NCBI GenBank assembly: GCA_021794425.1
Contig: JAJYQV010000038.1
Location: 1-48,666, forward strand
Length of the DNA: 48,666 nucleotides
Reading direction: 5' to 3'
Source of the DNA: a bacterium
Lineage (GTDB): Bacteria > Patescibacteriota > Minisyncoccia > Phycocordibacterales > Phycocordibacteraceae
The position numbers and the translations under genes are program-made. This document shows positions 3,165-39,790 of the stretch, one piece after another. Below the pieces are notes generated by a model. That model searched no databases. It was not told the DNA's origin and was given only the letters and a program-made list of their open reading frames with translations. The first letter of the stretch is position 1. Every line of letters begins with the position of its first letter.

Positions 3165-4370
<1,206 letters not shown>

Positions 4371-4770: not shown

Positions 4771-4800
4771 CCCGAGCGAAGTCAAAGGCTCTCACTCAGA

Positions 4801-4836
4801 AACACGCAACCGCCCCGAAAGGGGCGGTTGCGTGTT
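4801..4836 (+). repeat. Terminator-like hairpin, copy 1 of a direct repeat (partner 5591-5625)
   Basis: aacacGcaaccgcccc gaaa ggggcggttgCgtgtt. 16-bp stem with GAAA loop. Confidence 0.8.
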
Positions 4837-5480: not shown

Positions 5481-5590
5481 ATTGAAGGGACCGCCACGAA
5501 GCGTGACGGTCCCGAGTGAACATTCATAGTATATCGCAGACGGTCGAAAATGCAACGTTATCCACACACTCTCCGGCGTGATGACCGACA

Positions 5591-5625
5591 AACACACAAC
5601 CGCCCCGAAAGGGGCGGTTGTGTGT
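5591..5625 (+). repeat. Terminator-like hairpin, copy 2 of the direct repeat
   Basis: aacacAcaaccgcccc gaaa ggggcggttgTgtgt. Same hairpin as 4801-4836, with a G:C to A:T compensatory change. Confidence 0.8.
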
Positions 5626-6589: not shown

Positions 6590-7204
6590 ATGAAATTCAT
6601 CCTCGCCACCAAAGAGAACATGACCCGCGTCTTCACGGATGATGGGCGTGCCTACGCAGGTACGGTCTTGAACGTTGCGTCGATGACGGTCACGCAGGTC
6701 AAGAGCGAGAGCACCAAAGACGGCTATACGGCTGTGCAGGTCGGTTCCGGCGAGCGCCGCACCAAGAACATCAGCAAGGCGGTCCTGGGCCACACCGGCG
6801 GCGCGGGCTACGCGACAATCCGCGAGTTCCGCGGCGCAGAGGGGCTCGAAGTGGGCGCGACGCTCGACGCGTCGGCGCTCGCGGTCGGTGACACGGTGCA
6901 GGTCTCGGGCCTGTCGAAAGGCAAAGGCTTCGCCGGCGTCGTGAAGCGCCATGGCTTCCATGGCGGCCCGAGGAGCCATGGCCAGAAGCACACGGAGCGC
7001 GCGCCGGGGTCGATCGGCGGCTCGGGCGGTCGCGCCGGCGGCCGTGTGGTGAAGGGCAAGAAGATGGCCGGCCGCATGGGTACCGATCGGGTCACCGTCA
7101 CCAATCTCAAGGTCCTCGCGGTCGATGCGAAGGAAGGGAAAGTGATCGTCTCGGGCGCAGTGCCCGGTCGCCGCGGAACGCTTCTTGAGGTAGTATCCGC
7201 ATAA
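6590..7204 (+). CDS. rplC: 50S ribosomal protein L3
   Basis: MKFILATKENMTRVF...FAGVVKRHGFHGGP. Internal ATG of ORF 6500-7204. Confidence 0.93.
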   Translation: MKFILATKENMTRVFTDDGRAYAGTVLNVASMTVTQVKSESTKDGYTAVQVGSGERRTKNISKAVLGHTGGAGYATIREFRGAEGLEVGATLDASALAVGDTVQVSGLSKGKGFAGVVKRHGFHGGPRSHGQKHTERAPGSIGGSGGRAGGRVVKGKKMAGRMGTDRVTVTNLKVLAVDAKEGKVIVSGAVPGRRGTLLEVVSA

Positions 7205-10184: not shown

Positions 10185-10526
10185 ATGCTAACAGAAACAG
10201 AAGCAGAACGAGCCGAGCTCGAAAGCCTCGCGTACCTTTTGAGCGCAGAGGAAGGCGACCCGCAGCACATCTTGATGGTGGAGAAGATCGAGGTAACTCC
10301 GCTCATGGTTGCACGCGCCTTGTCTCAGAAGCTCTTTCTCGGGCCGCTGACATTGCATACGGTCACGCCCGCCAGGCTTTTTGGCCGCCCCTCACTGACG
10401 GTATTGCTCGCGCGCAAAAAAGAATACCTTGAACCCTTCGAGGCGCTGCCGGTCCCGAGCTACCGGAAGATGCTCGCGGTCTCGCGGTCTCGAAGAGAAA
10501 TAAAGCGTCTCACGCTCTGCCGGTGA
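10185..10526 (+). CDS. Hypothetical protein (113 aa)
   Basis: ATG preceded by aaaaaggagtgacaa (AGGAG Shine-Dalgarno). No family recognised. Confidence 0.5.
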
Positions 10527-16895: not shown

Positions 16896-18162
16896 CGCCT
16901 TCATCCACAAGATAAAGCTCGCTTTCGGCGATTCTGAAATACGTACTCGCGTCTATTTCCTCATCGGCGCGCTTGCCCTCTTCCGTTTCCTTGCCGCAAT
17001 CCCAATTCCGGGCGTCGATAAGGGCGCGCTCGCATCCTTTTTCGCGAACAACCAGTTCTTCGGCCTTTTGAATATTTTCTCGGGTGGCGGGCTCTCGCAG
17101 CTTTCGATCGTCATGCTCGGGGTTGGCCCGTACATCACCGCATCGATCGTCATGCAGCTCGCCACCATTGTCTTCCCGCAAGTGAAGCAGGCGTATTTTG
17201 AAGAAGGCGAAACTGGCCGCGCGAAATTCATCGAATGGAGCCGTCTCTTCACGATTCCGATTGCCGTCCTGCAGGGCATCGGTTTTCTCTTCCTACTCCA
17301 GAGCCAAAACGTCATCGGGCACCTGACCCCGGTCGCGTTCGTCGCCAACATCGTGCTTATCACCGCAGGGTCGATGCTCCTTATGTGGCTCGGCGAGCTC
17401 GTGACGGAGTTCGGCATCGGGAACGGCGTTTCGCTCATCATCCTTGCCGGCATCCTCGCGCGCGTGCCGTCGGGCATCTCACAGACCATCTTTGCCGCAT
17501 CGGCCGCCGACATTCCGGCGTATCTCGCCTTCCTGTTCCTCGCCGCGGTGATGACGTACGCCGTCGTCGTGGTCTCTGATGCCGAGCGTTCGATTCCAAT
17601 CGCGTATGCGCGCGCGCTGCGTGGCACGGCGCTCGCGCAAGGCGCGGCGACCTATCTTCCCATCCGGCTCTTGCAGGCAGGCGTGATTCCGATTATCTTC
17701 GCCCTCTCGCTCCTCCTCGTTCCGCAGATGGCGCTCTCAATGCTCTCGGCCGTGCATGTGAACTTCGCCTCGGGCGCGGCCCTATGGTACACGGCCTTCC
17801 TTTCCAACCCCTGGAAGTATGGCTCGGTATACTTCATCCTCGTCGTGCTCTTCACTTATTTCTACACGGCAGTCACCTTCGAGCCAAAGCGTGTAGCCGA
17901 GGACCTGCAAAAGACCGGCGCTTTCGTTCCGGGCGTGCGCCCCGGTCGTGAGACGAAAGAATACATCAGCAAGGTCGTGAACCGCGTCACGCTTCCGGGG
18001 GCCTGTTTCCTGGGCCTGCTCGCCGTCGCGCCGTCGATCATTCAGGGGCTTACGGGCGTCACGACGCTCGTTCTTGGCGGCACGGCGCTCCTCATCGCAG
18101 TGCAGGTCATCCTCGACCTAACGCAGAAGATCGACGCGCAAGTGTCGCTGCGAGAATACTAA
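16888..18162 (+). CDS. secY: Preprotein translocase subunit SecY
   Basis: Multi-TM protein. GLLNIFSGGGLSQLSIVMLGVGPYITASIVMQL. ATG 16888 overlaps the rplO stop by 8 nt. Confidence 0.95.
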   Translation: MINAFIHKIKLAFGDSEIRTRVYFLIGALALFRFLAAIPIPGVDKGALASFFANNQFFGLLNIFSGGGLSQLSIVMLGVGPYITASIVMQLATIVFPQVKQAYFEEGETGRAKFIEWSRLFTIPIAVLQGIGFLFLLQSQNVIGHLTPVAFVANIVLITAGSMLLMWLGELVTEFGIGNGVSLIILAGILARVPSGISQTIFAASAADIPAYLAFLFLAAVMTYAVVVVSDAERSIPIAYARALRGTALAQGAATYLPIRLLQAGVIPIIFALSLLLVPQMALSMLSAVHVNFASGAALWYTAFLSNPWKYGSVYFILVVLFTYFYTAVTFEPKRVAEDLQKTGAFVPGVRPGRETKEYISKVVNRVTLPGACFLGLLAVAPSIIQGLTGVTTLVLGGTALLIAVQVILDLTQKIDAQVSLREY

Positions 18163-21084: not shown

Positions 21085-22485
21085 ATGCTGAAACTTACTT
21101 CATACGGCGGGGCGGGGAAGGTGACGGGCTCGAATTTCCTCGTCGAGGGGTCGCGCGGGAAGGTGCTCGTCGACTGCGGCATCGAGCAGGGCGCTGACTT
21201 CTGCGAGGAGTGCATCTATGGCCCCTTCGCGTATGACGTAAAAAGCGTTGATGCGCTCGTCGTCACCCATGCGCACCTCGATCATGTCGGGCGCATCCCG
21301 AAGCTCGTCAAAGAGGGCTTCCGTGGGAAGATCTACATGACCCCGCCGACGAAAGACTTAGCCGAGCTCATCCTGCATGACTCGGTCGGCATACTCGGGC
21401 AGGAGGCTGCGCATCGTGGCATCGCGCCGCTCTACGAGGCGCAAGATGTTGCGCTTGCGTTCTCGCTCATCGAGACGCTCGACTACCACGTCGAGAAAGA
21501 AGTCGCGCCGGGTATCTCCGCGTACCTGCGCAATACCGGCCACATCCTCGGCTCCGCGAGCGTCCGGCTCACCGACGAGGACGGCACAACTCTCGCTTTG
21601 ACGGGCGACATCGGCAACTCGCCCTCGCCGCTCTTGCCCGACTGGGAGCCAGTGCCAGACGCCGACGCCCTTCTCATGGAGAGCGTGTATGGCGATCGCC
21701 TGCACCCGCAGCATGCCGACCGAGTGGCCAAATTGCGCGATACGCTCAAGGCGGCCATCGCGCGTGGGGGCACCATTCTCATCCCTGCCTTCTCGCTCGA
21801 ACGCACGCAGCTCATGCTCTATGAGCTCTCTAACTTCTTTGACGCGGGGGAATTGCCTAAGGTCCCCGTCTTTCTCGACTCGCCGCTCGCCATACACGTG
21901 ACCGAGGTCTATGAGAAGTGGGGTGCGACCTATTTCAAACCTGAAGCAGAAGAAGAGATGAAGCGCGAGAAGAGCTTGTTCGAGTTCCCGTTTCTCCACC
22001 AGACGCTCCATCCCGAGGACTCGGCGATGATAGGGAAGGAGAGCGACCCGAAGATCATCATCGCGGGCGCGGGCATGAGCCATGGCGGACGCATCGGCCG
22101 GTGGGAAGCGCGCTACCTGCCCGAGCCCGCCACGACGCTCGTCATCGTCGGGTATCAGGCTCCCGGCTCACCTGGGCGCCGCATGGCCGAGGGTGCGCCA
22201 TCCGTGCGGCTCGGCGGTCGCGAGGTGAAGATACGCGCAAAGGTCGAGATTCTCGAAGGCTGGTCGGCCCACGCCGACCGCGACGAGCTGCTCCGCTATG
22301 CCGAAGCGGCGCTTGCAGGCAAGCGCACCAAGGCCGTCTTCGTGGGGCTCGGCGAGCCCGCCGCCGAGCGCTTCCTCGCCCAGCGCATCCACGACTATCT
22401 CGGCGCCCGCGCCATCGTCGTGGAACCCGCCGTCACCTGGGAGGTCTCAAAGGAGGGGGTGCGTAAATTTGACGGGGAGGGATAA
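21085..22485 (+). CDS. Metallo-beta-lactamase / beta-CASP family RNA-metabolising hydrolase
   Basis: 466 aa. VVTHAHLDHVGRIP motif, later beta-CASP-like and C-terminal HADRDEL segments. Internal ATG of ORF 21037-22485. Confidence 0.85.
   Translation: MLKLTSYGGAGKVTGSNFLVEGSRGKVLVDCGIEQGADFCEECIYGPFAYDVKSVDALVVTHAHLDHVGRIPKLVKEGFRGKIYMTPPTKDLAELILHDSVGILGQEAAHRGIAPLYEAQDVALAFSLIETLDYHVEKEVAPGISAYLRNTGHILGSASVRLTDEDGTTLALTGDIGNSPSPLLPDWEPVPDADALLMESVYGDRLHPQHADRVAKLRDTLKAAIARGGTILIPAFSLERTQLMLYELSNFFDAGELPKVPVFLDSPLAIHVTEVYEKWGATYFKPEAEEEMKREKSLFEFPFLHQTLHPEDSAMIGKESDPKIIIAGAGMSHGGRIGRWEARYLPEPATTLVIVGYQAPGSPGRRMAEGAPSVRLGGREVKIRAKVEILEGWSAHADRDELLRYAEAALAGKRTKAVFVGLGEPAAERFLAQRIHDYLGARAIVVEPAVTWEVSKEGVRKFDGEG
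22411..22455 (+). repeat. Functional 3' coding end of the beta-CASP gene, copy A of a diverged duplication (partner 23260-23304)
   Basis: gccatcgtcgtggaacccgccgtcacctgggaggtctcaaaggag, encoding AIVVEPAVTWEVSKE. Confidence 0.8.
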
Positions 22486-22910: not shown

Positions 22911-23258
22911 ATGAAATTACACGATCTTCACCAGCGAATAGGGAGAAACGCGCGCCTTGATGAAGTGCGCCGGAAACTCAACGACGACATCGCATTCCAG
23001 ATGAGCCACCGCATTGAGATGCTCCGGCTCTCGCTCGGGCTGACCCAGGAGCAATTCGCCAAGAAAATCGGAACACAACAGCCTGCCATCGCACGCATCG
23101 AGCGTGGCGTTGTCATCCCGACGCTCCCGTTCTTGCAGAAGATTGCGAAGACATTCAAAATGGAGCTCGTCTTGCCAGATTTCGTGCCGACTGCGTCGCG
23201 CGGTGCCCCGATTAAGTCGCCGCTCAAACATATCGGTCGTGCGCGTGTTGCCGCGTAG
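22911..23258 (+). CDS. XRE-family helix-turn-helix antitoxin (HigA-like)
   Basis: LGLTQEQFAKKIGTQQPAIARIERG. The start could also be 22875, overlapping the toxin gene. Confidence 0.72.
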   Translation: MKLHDLHQRIGRNARLDEVRRKLNDDIAFQMSHRIEMLRLSLGLTQEQFAKKIGTQQPAIARIERGVVIPTLPFLQKIAKTFKMELVLPDFVPTASRGAPIKSPLKHIGRARVAA

Positions 23259-23259
23259 C

Positions 23260-23325
23260 GCCATCGTCGTCGAGCCGGGCGTCACCTGGGAGATATCGAA
23301 GAATACGATTAGGAGAGTCGGGTAG
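23260..23325 (+). pseudogene. Orphan duplicate of the beta-CASP gene 3' end (copy B) running to its own stop codon
   Basis: gccatcgtcgtcgagccgggcgtcacctgggagatatcgaagaat..., encoding AIVVEPGVTWEISKNTIRRVG*. 36 of 45 nt match copy A, and the differences are mostly at third codon positions. Confidence 0.75.
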
Positions 23326-23419: not shown

Positions 23420-24454
23420 ATGATGCACAAAAAAGTATTTTATAGAATCGCCTCCGCTTTCAAGACCACCCCGCTCGTCCTAGCACTCCTGCTCACCTTT
23501 GGCCTGAGCTACGCGTACGCCTCGTGGAGCGAACCAACGGCCACGCCGCCGGGAGGCAACGCCGACGCCCCGATTAACGTCGGCTCTGCGGCACAGAAAA
23601 AAATTGGCGGTCTTCTACTCAACACAGGAGGCGCTATTAATGGTCTCATTGTGCAGTATGGCAACGTTGGTATCGGGACGGTTTCTCCCCAAAGCCCCGC
23701 CCCCAATGGCAAAACATCCGGCAATATTACGGTGAATGACATCTACATAAGCTCAATAGGGAAATGGGCAAGTCAACTCGGGGGTGGAACCGCTGCTTCG
23801 CCATCCCAGTCTCCTGTGCTCTCGGCGACCTATACCTACACTACAAATTCCGTATGGTATAAACCCGGCAATCTTAAATATATTGTAGTTCAGGTTTGGG
23901 GTGGCGGCGGCGGCGGGTCTGGTAGCTATTCTGCATACGACGTCGGTAGCGGTGGCGGTGGCGGTGGCTATGCGAAGAAAACCCTCGACGCCGCATCACT
24001 TTCTTCATCTTATTCGGTAACGGTGGCTACAGGTGGTGCCGGTGGTTTTTCCACCTCCAATAGTGCTCAGGGTAACGATGGTGGCAACAGTTCATTTGGC
24101 GGACTGGTAACAGCTACTGGCGGCGGGGGTGGTATAAGCAATACTTCGAGTACTTATGCTGCTGGGGGTACTGGCGGTGTCGGGGAGAGTGGAGACGTGA
24201 ATGTAGTTGGTGGAAATGGCGTGACTGGCATTTTTAATTCAGGCACTAGTGTCGGTGGCACCGGTGGTGCCGGAGCCCAAGGTGGTGCCGGTGGTGCCGG
24301 TGGCATTTACTCGCAGAACGGAGGAACGGGCCAATTATTTGGAGGTGGCGGAGGTGGTAGTGGTTACGTTGATCCATGGAATCAGAGCGTCACTTACGGT
24401 GGCAGTGGCGCACCTGGTAAGGTGCTTGTGCAAGAGTATACAGCCGCCCCATAA
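23420..24454 (+). CDS. Secreted glycine-rich surface protein
   Basis: Signal peptide ending AYA|SW. WSEPTATPPGGNADAPINVGS motif. C-terminal VWGGGGGGSGSY...GGGGGGY...GGAGG glycine-rich domain. Confidence 0.75.
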   Translation: MMHKKVFYRIASAFKTTPLVLALLLTFGLSYAYASWSEPTATPPGGNADAPINVGSAAQKKIGGLLLNTGGAINGLIVQYGNVGIGTVSPQSPAPNGKTSGNITVNDIYISSIGKWASQLGGGTAASPSQSPVLSATYTYTTNSVWYKPGNLKYIVVQVWGGGGGGSGSYSAYDVGSGGGGGGYAKKTLDAASLSSSYSVTVATGGAGGFSTSNSAQGNDGGNSSFGGLVTATGGGGGISNTSSTYAAGGTGGVGESGDVNVVGGNGVTGIFNSGTSVGGTGGAGAQGGAGGAGGIYSQNGGTGQLFGGGGGGSGYVDPWNQSVTYGGSGAPGKVLVQEYTAAP

Positions 24455-25865: not shown

Positions 25866-26213
25866 TTAGACGACTTGCTTGGCTATGCGGGCGAAGACCT
25901 TGGGGCGCTCAGAGGCAAACTGGGCGAGGACCTTGCGGTCGAGCGCGAAGCCGCTCTTGTTCAGCTTGCTGATGAACGAGCTGTAGGACGCGTGGCCGTT
26001 CTCGCGGACGGCGGCGTTCAAGCGGACGATCCAGAGCTGTCGGAACGCCGTCTTCTTGTCGCGTCGGTGGGCAAAGGCGTAGCGGCCGGCGCGCATGAGC
26101 GCCTCGTGCGCGAAGTTGATCTTCTTGGAACGGACGCCGCGATAGCCCTTGGCGCGCTCAAGGATGTTCTTGCGACGCTTGTTTGCCTGGAGGCCTCCTT
26201 TGATTCTTGCCAT
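25866..26213 (-). CDS. rplT: 50S ribosomal protein L20
   Basis: MARIKGGLQANKRRKNILERAKGYRG. Confidence 0.95.
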   Translation of the reverse strand: MARIKGGLQANKRRKNILERAKGYRGVRSKKINFAHEALMRAGRYAFAHRRDKKTAFRQLWIVRLNAAVRENGHASYSSFISKLNKSGFALDRKVLAQFASERPKVFARIAKQVV

Positions 26214-26236
26214 ATGAGAGTGATTAAGACGCTAAG

Positions 26237-26422
26237 TTAGGTTCCCGGGAGGAAACGGCGCTGCACCTTTGCGGTGAGGGTGAGCGCGATGGCGCGACGC
26301 TTGCCCGAGCGCTTGCTGCCGCTTGCTTTCGCATTGAAATGGTTCTGGCCCGCCTTGCGCGCGACCAGCTTCCCGGTGCGGGTGACGCGGATTCGTTTGG
26401 TGTATGATTTATTGGTTTTCAT
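26237..26422 (-). CDS. rpmI: 50S ribosomal protein L35
   Basis: MKTNKSYTKRIRVTRTGKLVARKAGQNH. Internal ATG of ORF 26237-26482. Confidence 0.9.
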   Translation of the reverse strand: MKTNKSYTKRIRVTRTGKLVARKAGQNHFNAKASGSKRSGKRRAIALTLTAKVQRRFLPGT

Positions 26423-26975
26423 GGTGTGTTGGCGATTCTTTTTCGCGTTTCGCCTGGGCAGCGAGATCTCTCTCGATGACACCGGCGAACCCTTTTGGAC
26501 TCCGCGTGATGGGCTCGGCTACCTTGTAGGCGTAGGGGATGCGGGTGAGGAACTTCTCAAGACGTGTCTTGAGGAACTCCTCGCTCATGCCCTTGTAGCG
26601 CCCCTTGAGGAAGAGCTCGGCGCGAACCCGGTGTCCTTCGGCGAGCCACTCGGCCGCCTTTTTAGCCTTCAAGGCCATGTCATTGTCTCCGGTGCCCACC
26701 TTGATCTGGACCTCCTTCGTCTCCGACACCTTGACCTTCGCTTTGGCTACCTTCTCCTTTTTGCTTCGCTCATACTCGAATTTACCATAATCCATGATCT
26801 TCGCAACGGGCGGGGTCGCCGTTGGCGAAATCTCGATGAGGTCCTGGCCGGCCTGCTTTGCGGCCGCGAGCGCGTCAGAAAGCGAGAGCACTCCCAGGTT
26901 TTCGCCCTCCGCGCCAATAACGCGCAGCTCTGCTGCGCGTATTTCGTTATTGATGCGGAGTCGGTCGGTAGCCAC
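26409..26975 (-). CDS. infC: Translation initiation factor IF-3 (GTG start)
   Basis: RINNEIRAAELRVIGAEGENLGVL...DLIEISPTATPPVAKIMDYGKF. Confidence 0.93.
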   Translation of the reverse strand: MATDRLRINNEIRAAELRVIGAEGENLGVLSLSDALAAAKQAGQDLIEISPTATPPVAKIMDYGKFEYERSKKEKVAKAKVKVSETKEVQIKVGTGDNDMALKAKKAAEWLAEGHRVRAELFLKGRYKGMSEEFLKTRLEKFLTRIPYAYKVAEPITRSPKGFAGVIERDLAAQAKREKESPTHHENQ

Positions 26976-27070
26976 TGGAAGTACATAGAATATAGCACAA
27001 AATGGGGATAATACGCAAGGAAAATGATTGCGCCGGCTGGGAAGCCGGCGCAGGATGATCGAATGGTGCG

Positions 27071-27113
27071 GAGTTGGTCGGGGGAAGAGAGGACGATCTC
27101 GGCTTTGCCTTGG
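27071..27113 (-). pseudogene. Orphan duplicate of the 3' coding end of the PLD-nuclease gene (partner 27658-27700)
   Basis: The minus strand encodes QGKAEIVLSSPDQL, versus QGKAEIVLSSPTQL in the intact gene. 37 of 43 nt are identical by manual alignment. Confidence 0.75.
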
Positions 27114-27206
27114 GAGCTCTGTGACTTGTGCTTAGTATGCACAACAAACAGACCATCACTCGAAGCCCCGCCGAAAGGCGGGGCTTCGGGTTTTGTCGGG
27201 GAAGTG

Positions 27207-27215
27207 TGGTATGAT
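27207..27215 (+). promoter_or_regulatory. Extended -10 (TGgTATGAT) 6 nt before the antitoxin ATG 27222, predicted leaderless
   Basis: tggtatgat gcgggc ATG. Confidence 0.45.
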
Positions 27216-27221
27216 GCGGGC

Positions 27222-27410
27222 ATGACCAACGCACAGCTCAATAAGCAGATAGGCGACATCGTCGAGCAGAAGCTGCTTGAGTTTTTCGGCGACCCGGATG
27301 AAGGGCGCGAGCTCAAGAAGTCTTTTGTAACTGATTTGAGAAAACGATTGAAGGAAAAGCAGAAAACCATACCCATGTCTGTCGTGGCAAAAAAGTATGG
27401 CCTCCGTTGA
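27222..27410 (+). CDS. Putative antitoxin (62 aa) of the RelE/ParE module
   Basis: Small ORF overlapping the toxin start by 14 nt. Internal ATG of ORF 27024-27410. Confidence 0.6.
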   Translation: MTNAQLNKQIGDIVEQKLLEFFGDPDEGRELKKSFVTDLRKRLKEKQKTIPMSVVAKKYGLR

Positions 27411-27648
27411 GTGGACTCCGCGCGCCTTGCAAGACCTCGAGAAGATTGACCGTATTACCGCAGAGCGGATTGCCGCGAAGGCGATGTGGCTGGGAGAAAA
27501 CTTTGCACACATCGTGCATGAAGGACTACATCACGACTTCGGCAGTTCATACAAACTTCGCATCGGCGATTATCGCGCGGTCTACTCTATCGACGGGAAT
27601 GTCGTCACCATCCAAAAAGTAGGTCATCGTCGAGACGTGTACAAATAG
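27397..27648 (+). CDS. RelE/ParE-family toxin
   Basis: 83 aa. ...YKLRIGDYRAVYSIDGNVVTIQKVGHRRDVYK. Confidence 0.85.
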   Translation: MASVEWTPRALQDLEKIDRITAERIAAKAMWLGENFAHIVHEGLHHDFGSSYKLRIGDYRAVYSIDGNVVTIQKVGHRRDVYK

Positions 27649-28566
27649 TTATTGCGAGAGCTGGGTGGGGGAGGAGAGGACGATTTCGGCCTTGCCTTGG
27701 TAGGAGGAGATCTTGCCGGTGAGGGTGACGGTCTTGCCTGCGAGCGAGGAGAGGTCGCCGAATTTCTTGGCGTCGTCGGCGAAGATGACGCCCGAGAACG
27801 GGCAGGTCTTGTAGCTCTTGCAGAAGTCGAGAAAGACGGTCCTGCTCTTGCTCGTGTAGGCCTCGACGAGGGTGCCCGTGACTGAGGCGGTCTCGCCGAT
27901 GTGCTTGGGCGCGTCAGTGTAGGGGATGATGCCGACAGAAACGGGCGCGGCCGCTTGCGCGGCCGCGTCGGTGCCATGGTAGGCGGTAAATAATCTCGTC
28001 AAAATGTTTTCGTAGGTTTGCCGCAGAGTGGGATCGGTGCCTATTTCAAGAATCTCGTCATTGATCGTTGTGGCCGAGCCGGTCCAGTTGTAGCTCCCGA
28101 GCGCGTAGGCCTGGTCGGTGACCATCATCTTGATGTGCATGATGCCAGAGCCGTCGGCGTGCTTCTCGGTCTCTACCGGGATGCCTGCGGCGACGAGCTC
28201 TTTCACGATGGGCGCGCCGTAGCTCGATGCGGCCTGGCCCGAGTCGATGATGCCGCGCACGTCGAGGCCGCGCTCTTTCGCGGCTACGAGCGCGTCGGCA
28301 ACGTCTTTGAGCGTGAACGTGTAGATGGCGAAATAAATATGACTCTTCGCGGCATCGATGAGCGCGATGAGCTCTTTATCGTTCTCTTTCCGGTCGAGCG
28401 AGTAGAGGACACGCACGGTGCCGGGGGCGGGCGAGGCGATGGTGACGCTCGGCACCGAGACGCACGTGCCGGCGACCGCCGCGTGTCCGTTTGCCGAGTA
28501 CCCCGCGAACGCCGCCGCGCCAGCGAGCATCAGCGCCACCCCCGCGCGCACTAATTTCCGCTCCAT
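27649..28566 (-). CDS. Secreted/anchored phospholipase-D-family (Nuc-like) nuclease with a C-terminal OB-like domain
   Basis: N-terminal hydrophobic segment. Single HKD motif MHIKMMVTDQAYALGSYNWT. The stop abuts the RelE stop. Confidence 0.85.
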   Translation of the reverse strand: MERKLVRAGVALMLAGAAAFAGYSANGHAAVAGTCVSVPSVTIASPAPGTVRVLYSLDRKENDKELIALIDAAKSHIYFAIYTFTLKDVADALVAAKERGLDVRGIIDSGQAASSYGAPIVKELVAAGIPVETEKHADGSGIMHIKMMVTDQAYALGSYNWTGSATTINDEILEIGTDPTLRQTYENILTRLFTAYHGTDAAAQAAAPVSVGIIPYTDAPKHIGETASVTGTLVEAYTSKSRTVFLDFCKSYKTCPFSGVIFADDAKKFGDLSSLAGKTVTLTGKISSYQGKAEIVLSSPTQLSQ

Positions 28567-28571
28567 ACGTT

Positions 28572-28581
28572 TAGTATACTA
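28572..28581. promoter_or_regulatory. Palindromic shared -10 (TAGTATACTA) for two divergent, predicted-leaderless genes
   Basis: TATACT is read on each strand exactly 6 nt before ATG 28587 (+) and ATG 28566 (-). The start codons are only 20 bp apart. Confidence 0.5.
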
Positions 28582-28586
28582 TTTGT

Positions 28587-29288
28587 ATGGCGCTCGTTTT
28601 TGATATTGAGACGGTGGGAGAGAAGTGGGATGCGCTCGACGAGACGACGCAGCACAACCTCTCATGGTACCTGCGTGAGTCATCGCGTTCGGAAGAAGAG
28701 TATGCCTATGAGATGAAGGAATTGCGAGAGGGACTCGGGCTCTCGCCCCTGACCGGCTTCGTCGTGGCGATCGGCGTGTACGACACGGTGACCGGGAAGG
28801 GTGCAGTGTATTTCTCTGCACCCGATGCAAAAATAAAAGCGAGCGAAGAAGACGGCATCAAATACGAAGTGATGAGCGAGAAAGAGATGCTTCAGAAATT
28901 CTGGCAGGTGGTGGCGGTTTGCAATGAGTTCGTCTCGTTCAACGGCCGCAGCTTCGACGCACCGTTCCTCGCGATCCGCTCCATGGTGCACGGAGTCCCT
29001 CCGACCAAAGACCTCATGAGCAATCGGTATCTCTCGCTTCAGCGCGGCTGCACCCATGTCGACCTCATGGATCAGCTCACCTTCTATGGGGCCGCGCGAT
29101 TCAAGAAATCGCTCCACCTCTTCTGTCGGGCGCTCGGTATCAAGAGTCCGAAGGCGAGCGGGACCGCCGGCGACGACGTGGCGGCGTTGTATGCTGAAAA
29201 GAAATATCTTGAGATTGCCCGCTACAACGCCGGTGACATAAAAGCCACGGCTGCGCTTTACGAACGCTGGAAGGAGACGTTTCGCTAG
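28587..29288 (+). CDS. RNase-H-fold 3'-5' exonuclease (PolB-exonuclease-like)
   Basis: Exo motifs VFDIET, FNGRSFDAPFL, YNAGDIKAT. Confidence 0.75.
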   Translation: MALVFDIETVGEKWDALDETTQHNLSWYLRESSRSEEEYAYEMKELREGLGLSPLTGFVVAIGVYDTVTGKGAVYFSAPDAKIKASEEDGIKYEVMSEKEMLQKFWQVVAVCNEFVSFNGRSFDAPFLAIRSMVHGVPPTKDLMSNRYLSLQRGCTHVDLMDQLTFYGAARFKKSLHLFCRALGIKSPKASGTAGDDVAALYAEKKYLEIARYNAGDIKATAALYERWKETFR

Positions 29289-39194: not shown

Positions 39195-39219
39195 CGGGCG
39201 GCGGAGAAATCCGGAACAA

Positions 39220-39246
39220 GCGCGGGCGGCTCCGCCGCCCGCGCGT
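39220..39246. repeat. GC hairpin, copy 1 of a 27-nt direct repeat flanking the RelE/Phd-like module
   Basis: gcgcgggcggcTCcgccgcccgcgcgt. Confidence 0.8.
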
Positions 39247-39756: not shown

Positions 39757-39763
39757 CAAATAC

Positions 39764-39790
39764 GCGCGGGCGGCTTCGCCGCCCGCGCGT
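39764..39790. repeat. GC hairpin, copy 2 of the 27-nt direct repeat
   Basis: gcgcgggcggcTTcgccgcccgcgcgt, with one loop difference from copy 1. Confidence 0.8.

Follow-up and report, generated by a model that had tools for sequence, protein, structure and literature searches.

Restriction-modification complexes are known to settle in bacterial genomes by insertion with long target duplication, in which a module without mobility genes is found between direct repeats of variable length exceeding 30 bp; such cases come mostly from naturally competent species and their mechanism is unexplained (PMC2853133). The concept is credited to Nobusato et al. 2000, as cited in Furuta, Abe & Kobayashi 2010 (PMC2853133), and in two Haemophilus cases the repeats measure 46 bp and overlap the 3' end of a gene (PMC2853133). 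Here we describe a locus of comparable structure in an uncultivated member of the Patescibacteria, where a toxin-antitoxin (TA) pair of the ParE/RelE superfamily lies between a gene for a phospholipase D (PLD)-family nuclease and infC, which encodes translation initiation factor IF-3, and is flanked by two diverged copies of the 3' coding end of the PLD gene. The window, that is, the whole stretch of 48,666 nucleotides that was analysed, is one contig (C32) of a 688-kb genome (G000) that is 98% complete. It was compared with 222 genomes of the genus, denoted by G-numbers, among which the slot between PLD and infC was inspected at 43 loci. Our analysis shows that the two copies are alleles from different lineages and not a fresh target duplication that later decayed, because they differ mostly at synonymous sites and share their variants with different species. 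We assign a probability of roughly 0.6 to the reading that the displaced copy, or orphan, is the scar of a recombination event that brought together, from related lineages, two forms of the PLD-infC junction.

The likeness to long target duplication is considerable. The PLD locus holds an addictive module without a mobility gene between flanking repeats longer than 30 bp (46 nt, 85% identity), the repeated sequence occurs once at the empty sites of relatives (20 sites), and the repeats are unique in the genome and of variable length. It differs in its cargo, which is a ParE/RelE TA pair rather than a restriction-modification system, the other structural features being present, and in its host, a Kaiserbacteria-like member of the Patescibacteria with a genome of 0.69 Mb. 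It differs also in the copies themselves, which are 15% diverged, mostly synonymously, and each match the allele of another species; this divergence and these allele matches therefore argue for recombination between lineages rather than for duplication of one target. The PLD case adds an allelic, synonymous-site signature to the structure of a long target duplication.

A second process with a bearing on the locus is homology-facilitated illegitimate recombination (de Vries & Wackernagel 2002; Prudhomme et al. 2002; Meier & Wackernagel 2003), as related in PMC5361080 and PMC3240628. As far as those accounts describe it, homology to a conserved gene anchors one end of the incoming DNA and the other end is attached without any, nothing beyond host recombination and DNA uptake is required, and short foreign stretches integrate beside the anchor, all of which would apply here. 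In the same accounts the process is defined by experiment, whereas at the PLD locus it would be read from a scar, and the experiments usually delete recipient DNA, whereas here there is a net insertion and both gene ends are kept. The participation of two different DNA molecules is indicated by the synonymous bias and the species-specific variants described below, and a capacity for uptake and RecA-type recombination by gene content (ComEC, DprA and a recA-like gene).

Displacement of C-terminal coding regions, leaving orphaned 3' regions behind, is known from rhs, contact-dependent inhibition (CDI) and type VI secretion system (T6SS) effector-immunity loci (Kirchberger et al. 2017, PMC5361080; Jackson et al. 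2009; Poole et al. 2011), and homology-facilitated illegitimate recombination is the route proposed for displaced 3' ends in T6SS and Rhs loci (PMC5361080). The PLD locus resembles these systems in having an intact gene with one 3' end, small accessory genes and a displaced copy of the 3' end, and in being a hotspot at which such events recur. The ends in those systems encode different toxin domains and their variation is under selection, whereas the two PLD ends code for almost identical stretches of 15 residues in a housekeeping-type nuclease, with an orphan of only 46 nt. The minimal mobile elements of Neisseria, said to have been described by Saunders and Snyder in 2002, reportedly occupy a fixed slot between conserved genes, carry small strain-specific cargo and are exchanged by transformation and flanking homology; that concept differs in being without flanking duplicated gene ends.

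A direct-repeat search at the locus returned one family, with copies at 27071-27116 and 27658-27703, 46 nt long at 85% identity with a spacing of 587. The copies match at 39 of 46 positions, against 30/46 for the best ungapped 46-mer in 100 shuffles of the region, and local alignment of the last 90 nt of the PLD gene with the 1.5 kb downstream gave z = 16 against shuffles. The initial annotation, which was made from the letters of the window, had proposed, from a manual alignment, that diverged copies of the PLD 3' coding end lie on both sides of the cassette; computational alignment finds the similarity to be highly significant, and over the 43-nt span used in that annotation a recount agrees with its figure of 37 matches (37/43). 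The right copy (27658-27703, minus strand; YQGKAEIVLSSPTQL) corresponds to the last 15 codons of the intact gene of 305 aa (27649-28566, minus strand), whose C-terminal end is SYQGKAEIVLSSPTQLSQ followed by the stop. The orphan (27068-27116 in the feature list, minus strand; SQGKAEIVLSSPDQLR...) reads SQGKAEIVLSSPDQL on the same strand as PLD, is part of no gene and has no stop codon at the expected place. The translations given earlier for both ends agree with the sequence, and the two ends encode nearly the same 15 residues. The idea that the similarity arose by chance or through misassembly is practically negligible and was already refuted, by the margin over the shuffles (39/46 against a maximum of 30/46; z = 16) and by independent public assemblies. 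Over the stretches that they share with the window, contigs of these assemblies are 99.9-100% identical to it; four of the contigs span the orphan and the cassette, and an assembly artefact is ruled out because they show the same structure. Exact-protein look-ups recovered contigs with the identical arrangement only and found no empty site within the population.

The origin of the two copies is best approached through the working PLD ends of other species. The orphan agrees at 44 of 46 bases with the PLD end of G087, a genome in which the slot is empty, against 39 of 46 for the end of its own neighbouring gene. When the 222 genomes were searched for the orphan pattern with up to 3 mismatches, the PLD end of G087 was the sole other match, and within G000 the pattern occurs once at the same tolerance. 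The correspondence continues beyond the coding end: from the orphan leftwards the sequence is collinear with the G087 empty site, running from the PLD end through TTTCC(C)TTGCGTATT... and the infC -10 motif into infC. The intact end has the variants AAG, GAA and CAG and the tail TCG-CAA-TAA in common with G007 and G166, to which it is 91% and 90% identical, respectively, over 58 nt. Each copy is of one type along its entire length. Of the 7 differences between them, 4 are synonymous changes at third positions and 2 more make up a D/T codon, where D also occurs in the PLD ends of G024, G087 and G124.

The same bias is seen when the eight clear gene-end/orphan pairs in the genome, introduced below, are pooled. 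Their differences at codon positions 1, 2 and 3 number 9, 9 and 38, so that 38/56 (68%) fall at third positions, with p = 1.4e-7 against one third and p = 5e-4 against ~45%, the latter being a rough estimate for an in-place duplicate with a neutrally decaying orphan. With three orphans of other genomes added (G096 and G023 at PLD; G070 at GAPDH), the proportion is 54/77 (p = 7e-6). This excess of third-position changes indicates that, until a short time before they were joined, the two members of every pair were still functional, each in a lineage of its own.

PLD orthologues are present in 112/222 genomes of the genus and the gene order exo-PLD-infC is conserved, the PLD protein homologues carrying the source names Kaiserbacteria, Paceibacteria or Minisyncoccia. 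At 20 of the 43 loci the slot is empty; here the PLD stop lies 32-71 nt upstream of the infC start and the gap holds the infC extended -10 motif TGTGCTATA(T/G)T. Because of these 20 cassette-free relatives, the infC-proximal copy can be seen to stand at the place of the PLD gene end and not inside another gene, and orthologue comparison upholds the initial annotation on this point also. Unrelated cargo fills ~19 of the 43 loci, including a MazF/PemK-like gene, a coiled-coil open reading frame (ORF), a 3-methyladenine glycosylase-like ORF, a gene family of 167-193 aa and others. In G142, G094 and G224, a homologous ParE/antitoxin pair occupies the same slot in the same convergent orientation and without an orphan, its toxin being 45-55% and its antitoxin 63-74% identical to those in the window. 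In G142 the pair takes up the entire gap, leaving 2 nt between the toxin and PLD stops and 47 nt between the antitoxin and infC starts. Where an orphan is present at this slot its length varies between genomes (38, 46 and 72 nt). Given the empty, filled and relic states across the genus, the slot is a hotspot in which cassettes are gained and lost, and the TA pair is an old tenant of it. The relic state is found in G011 (G011:C63), where the 5' end of the antitoxin gene (17 codons, 76% identical) persists 22-72 nt past the PLD stop and before the infC promoter, with no orphan, and it is a snapshot of cassette loss.

Elsewhere, in G140 and on contig 24 of G224, homologues of the ParE cassette lie between duplicated ends of different host genes. 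The first (L026; G140:C19, 1440-1482 / 2078-2120) places the cassette between duplicated 5' ends of a gene for a 496-aa membrane protein, and the second (L044; G224:C24, 1224-1262 / 1763-1801) between duplicated 3' ends of a gene for a 431-aa protein. Within the window itself, the initial annotation had noted that the site of the beta-CASP gene and its HigBA cassette shares this architecture, and a repeat of 44 nt at 84% identity is indeed present there (22409-22452 / 23258-23301). Its further statement that the duplication follows the host gene and not the orientation of the cassette also holds.

The PLD locus is one of a series. Self-comparison of the genome produced many short direct repeats 150-4,000 bp apart, among which are at least 8 clear pairs of an intact gene end and an orphan around small cargo, belonging to PLD, beta-CASP, atpG, recA, ruvB, smc and two other host genes. 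Besides the ParE pair at PLD and HigBA at beta-CASP, the cargo consists of a MazF/PemK-like toxin at atpG (C5:17511-17555 / 18078-18122), an MNT/HepT (HEPN) TA pair at recA (C12:23195-23234 / 23943-23982), MNT at a site on C20 (C20:2769-2837 / 3497-3565), NYN at ruvB, and a 92-aa ORF with an IS200-like, Y1 transposase-like gene at smc (C43:9036-9099 / 10341-10404). The copies at atpG, ruvB and smc differ by 3-8 nucleotides and nonetheless encode identical peptides. The MazF/PemK-like gene lies between atpG and atpD in the ATP synthase operon and overlaps the atpG stop, and the orphan atpG tail shows 8 differences, all of them synonymous. At smc the last 21 codons are duplicated, including the stop, and the two copies encode identical peptides. 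A 129-aa gene has its 3' end duplicated around a RelE-like TA pair (C15:3264-3306 / 3782-3824; 43 nt, 100% identity), which looks like the youngest event of its kind in the genome.

Other duplications in the genome concern gene starts or hairpins. The starts of the enolase and ComEC genes each have a displaced copy on the far side of a small insert (C19:128-180 / 1300-1352 and C21:6115-6175 / 6815-6875, respectively), so that gene 5' ends are orphaned too. Four copies of a 45-100-nt block resembling the start of a signal-peptide-encoding gene (MKSIALGKTRLAPLAA...) occur on C6 at 4337, 5039, 5717 and 7002, at intervals of 660-1,300 nt that hold small cargo genes, MazF-like and NYN-like by sequence; the blocks are either gene starts displaced into an array or a cluster of paralogues. 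Within the window, an NYN gene is bracketed by copies of a terminator hairpin (4800-4835 / 5590-5625) that differ from each other by a compensatory stem pair, and a RelE-like pair is likewise bracketed by terminator-hairpin copies, not by a coding end (39215-39246 / 39759-39790).

The recombination that we favour may be described in the following terms. Two versions of the junction circulate in the genus, one with a ParE-type TA pair against the PLD stop and another, cassette-free, with the PLD end 30-70 nt before the infC promoter. In an ancestor of the species, a genome with one version would have received DNA of the other by recombination, most probably following DNA uptake. Ordinary homologous recombination within a conserved neighbouring gene would have joined one end, and the other, being without a partner, would have been joined illegitimately at 27116/27117. 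This would be homology-facilitated illegitimate recombination or, equivalently, single-crossover integration, and its outcome would be that both gene ends are kept, one on the PLD gene followed by the cassette and the other as a stub ahead of infC. The exchange could have taken either of two directions: (i) a G087-like empty site received DNA with a PLD end and the cassette, the anchor being in PLD, or (ii) a cassette-bearing genome received an empty, G087-like allele with its anchor in infC, the short PLD tail of that allele being joined illegitimately. Both yield the same structure; the second fits the observations slightly better because the TA pair is old in the slot and orphans are short (26-137 nt genome-wide). 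A combined homologous and illegitimate route would probably make the scar an event of a known kind, such that most likely no new mobile element is needed to explain the orphan, and the orphan itself is a silent stub in front of infC, without a function of its own.

The gene content of the organism is relevant to this route. ComEC and DprA are present, and a recA-like gene, identified from sequence only, lies at C12:23944-24993. A MutS domain was not found in the 98%-complete genome; absence of MutS would relax the barrier to recombination between sequences that are 15% apart. The insert of 532 bp encodes the antitoxin and toxin only and contains no mobility gene and no terminal repeats, and the single tyrosine recombinase gene in the genome (C25:5894-6424) is on another contig.

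Several observations weigh against a junction of two lineages. Sliding-window identity across PLD and infC against ~40 relatives resolved no breakpoint, because no relative is closer than about 77-78% in PLD; a search of 5.8 billion proteins, together with the genomes of the genus, found no PLD relative above that identity. The body of the PLD gene is not unusually diverged from its closest relative when PLD identity is regressed on infC identity. Microhomology at the joint amounts to at most 4 nt (CTCC, 27113-27116), which proves nothing, and the codon-position bias at the PLD locus alone (4/7) is not significant, the argument consisting of the pooled set and the shared variants. A 33-nt hairpin that accompanies different cargo in 5 genomes, discussed below, would not be predicted from a purely random process, and natural transformation of this organism is indicated through its ComEC and DprA genes only. 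A PLD tree, built to see whether the orphan-bearing genomes form one clade, is star-like and has poor support.

A tentative extension of the recombination model, which we consider rather doubtful, is that orphans record failed 'curing' events, in which an incoming cassette-free allele was accepted only by one-sided recombinants that kept the cassette. A clean double crossover would delete the TA pair, whereupon the stable toxin would kill the recombinant, and the surviving one-sided recombinants would add the short gene tail of the incoming allele as a stub. If this were true, addiction would explain why scars cluster around TA and toxin-type cargo in small genomes without MutS, and also why the stubs are short (26-137 nt), being too short to find a partner across the cassette.

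The obvious alternative to recombination between lineages is that the cassette was inserted in place with a long target duplication, when break and repair would have copied at least 46 nt of the recipient's own PLD end, and the copies diverged later. The architecture is that described for restriction-modification complexes (PMC2853133), for which the mechanism is itself unexplained, and the C15 pair, at 100% identity over 43 nt, has the appearance expected right after such an event. We regard this explanation as unlikely nonetheless, since the differences are concentrated at synonymous sites (38/56, p = 5e-4 against the in-place expectation), the orphan is nearer to the working allele of another species (44/46) than to its own gene (39/46), and the intact end has a multi-site set of variants in common with other species; to rescue it would require later allelic replacement by recombination anyway. 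It is very improbable that the orphan is the relic of a tandem duplication or of a decayed second PLD paralogue. Internal duplication of the gene could be entertained insofar as PLD appears in two pieces in G007, G013 and G164, with an overlap of ~25 residues in G007, but none of the 43 loci has a longer second PLD copy, the context downstream of the orphan is that of an ordinary empty site, and a copy made within the genome would start out identical and decay at all codon positions, which is not seen. The divided genes themselves are found at L017/L019 (G007:C2), at L018/L020 (G013:C12) and in G164; the G007 pieces cover residues 1-225 and 201-305, suggesting an internal duplication or a recombination joint.

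Another explanation would place the cassette in a dedicated family, either integrase-free or mobilised in trans, whose recognition unit is a hairpin or small RNA and which targets gene 3' ends and brings a replacement end with it, in the manner of tRNA-targeting islands. A 33-nt A-run and hairpin (window 27158-27194) is present in 5/222 genomes only and lies always between the cargo and an orphan gene end: at the PLD slot in G000, G023, G096 and G109, with three different cargoes and with the orphan eroded in G109, and in G070 between NYN cargo and an orphan GAPDH end. In G023, G096, G109 and G070 a promoter-like motif and another small hairpin come before it, forming with it a unit on the strand opposite PLD that could be a small RNA gene; what G000 recognisably has in common with these four is the hairpin and T-run only. 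Parts of the slot contents thus travel between genomes and even between loci, and the shared 33-nt hairpin is the reason why we keep a true cassette family in consideration as a minority explanation. It is improbable all the same. The distance from joint to hairpin varies from 45 to ~140 nt and the joints have no terminal motif in common, orphan lengths at this single slot vary from 38 to 72 nt, and most other flanked cassettes in the genome are without such a hairpin, the HigA stop abutting its orphan directly; moreover, the genome has one tyrosine recombinase gene only and the hairpin is single-copy in G000. The GAPDH 3'-end repeat in G070 is at 1320-1358 / 2577-2615 of L073 (G070:C6), with the hairpin at ~1501; the hairpin was noted also in L075, L076 and L077.

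Known classes of mobile element were considered and rejected. A DNA transposon or insertion sequence is contradicted by the lack of a transposase and of terminal inverted repeats in the insert, and by duplications of 38, 46 and 72 nt at the same slot. The boundaries are the ends of host genes that differ by site, the one tyrosine recombinase is encoded on another contig and the cassettes are scattered among housekeeping genes, none of which suits an integron cassette. An integrase-mediated island that restores the 3' end of a gene was rejected also, there being no integrase in the insert and homologous ParE cassettes being bracketed by the ends of three host genes.

The cassette appears from its sequence to be an ordinary type II module, with the antitoxin first, an overlapping toxin and its own putative promoter, of which toxicity and neutralisation are predicted. 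The toxin gene (27397-27648, plus strand; 83 aa) is convergent with PLD and its stop (27646-27648) abuts the PLD stop (27649-27651). Its product matches the ParE_toxin family (PF05016; E = 4.5e-13, 50 bits against a cut-off of 23) and scores 26.8 bits with TIGR02385 RelE_StbE, just below the cut-off of 27.9; full-length homologues occur in 22 other genomes of the genus. The candidate antitoxin (27222-27410, plus strand; 62 aa) overlaps the toxin start by 14 nt and is a small gene lying upstream, as in ParDE and RelBE systems. The 62-aa ORF co-occurs with the toxin in G094, G224 and G142; it found no match in Pfam or NCBIfam and differs from those systems in belonging to no described family. 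A putative extended -10-like promoter (TGTGGTATGAT; 27205-27215, plus strand) is situated 6 nt ahead of the antitoxin ATG. A simple promoter scan that requires a -35 box did not call it, and TGGTAYAAT-like motifs also precede the antitoxin start in G224 and G094.

The initial annotation had placed two hairpins, together with the TA pair, between the two copies. The TA pair and the hairpin at 27160-27187 do lie between the copies, but the other hairpin (27029-27052) is outside them, on the side of the orphan that faces infC. The latter (hairpin 1, minus strand) is terminator-like on the PLD strand according to a terminator scan (-20.8 kcal/mol, z = -4.8), and its homologue in G024 is the terminator hairpin that precedes infC, the stems differing by a compensatory change. 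Hairpin 2 (27158-27196, plus strand), an inverted repeat with a GC stem of 12-15 bp, a GAAA loop and a following T-run, has a fold energy of -35.3 kcal/mol (z = -6.7). Each hairpin is single-copy in a search of G000, and no known RNA family reached its gathering score in 26000-28700. The spacer at the presumed illegitimate joint (27117-27159) is unique in the genome and holds a palindrome, TTGTGC-N7-GCACAA, that is promoter-like on both strands. Compared with the spacers of other genomes it shows no convincing homology, aligning poorly with those of G023, G096, G109 and G070; the idea that it is a decayed infC promoter has a shared TTGTGC motif in its favour, but by eye the similarity is not convincing.

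The flanking genes are those expected of the slot. Downstream, infC (26409-26975, minus strand; GTG start; Pfam IF3_N and IF3_C) is the conserved neighbour, and the extended -10 motif at 26986-27003 (minus strand; TTGTGCTATATT), a putative infC promoter, is found directly 3' of the PLD stop at the empty sites of relatives. The PLD gene itself belongs to the Nuc/NucT-like family by its Pfam PLDc_2 match (PF13091, E = 4e-23), its matches to NucT profiles being weak and far under the NCBIfam cut-offs. Upstream, an exonuclease-like gene (28587-29288, plus strand) has 68-83% identity to the gene at the same position in relatives, and RNase_H_2 and DNA_pol_B_exo2 are listed for an identical gene.

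For annotation, it follows that stubs of this kind should not be called pseudogenes of a second gene copy. The synonymous-site signature provides a simple computational test that separates the scars of allelic recombination from true target duplications, and it could be used on the older, mechanistically unexplained cases of long target duplication. The route is likely to be host recombination between diverged relatives at conserved gene ends, and the locus shows how small selfish or defence cassettes settle between the tightly packed housekeeping genes of an uncultivated lineage of Patescibacteria without a mobility enzyme. Its interest lies mainly in recurrence, the same scar being found repeatedly in one tiny genome, mostly around TA, MazF-like or NYN cargo.

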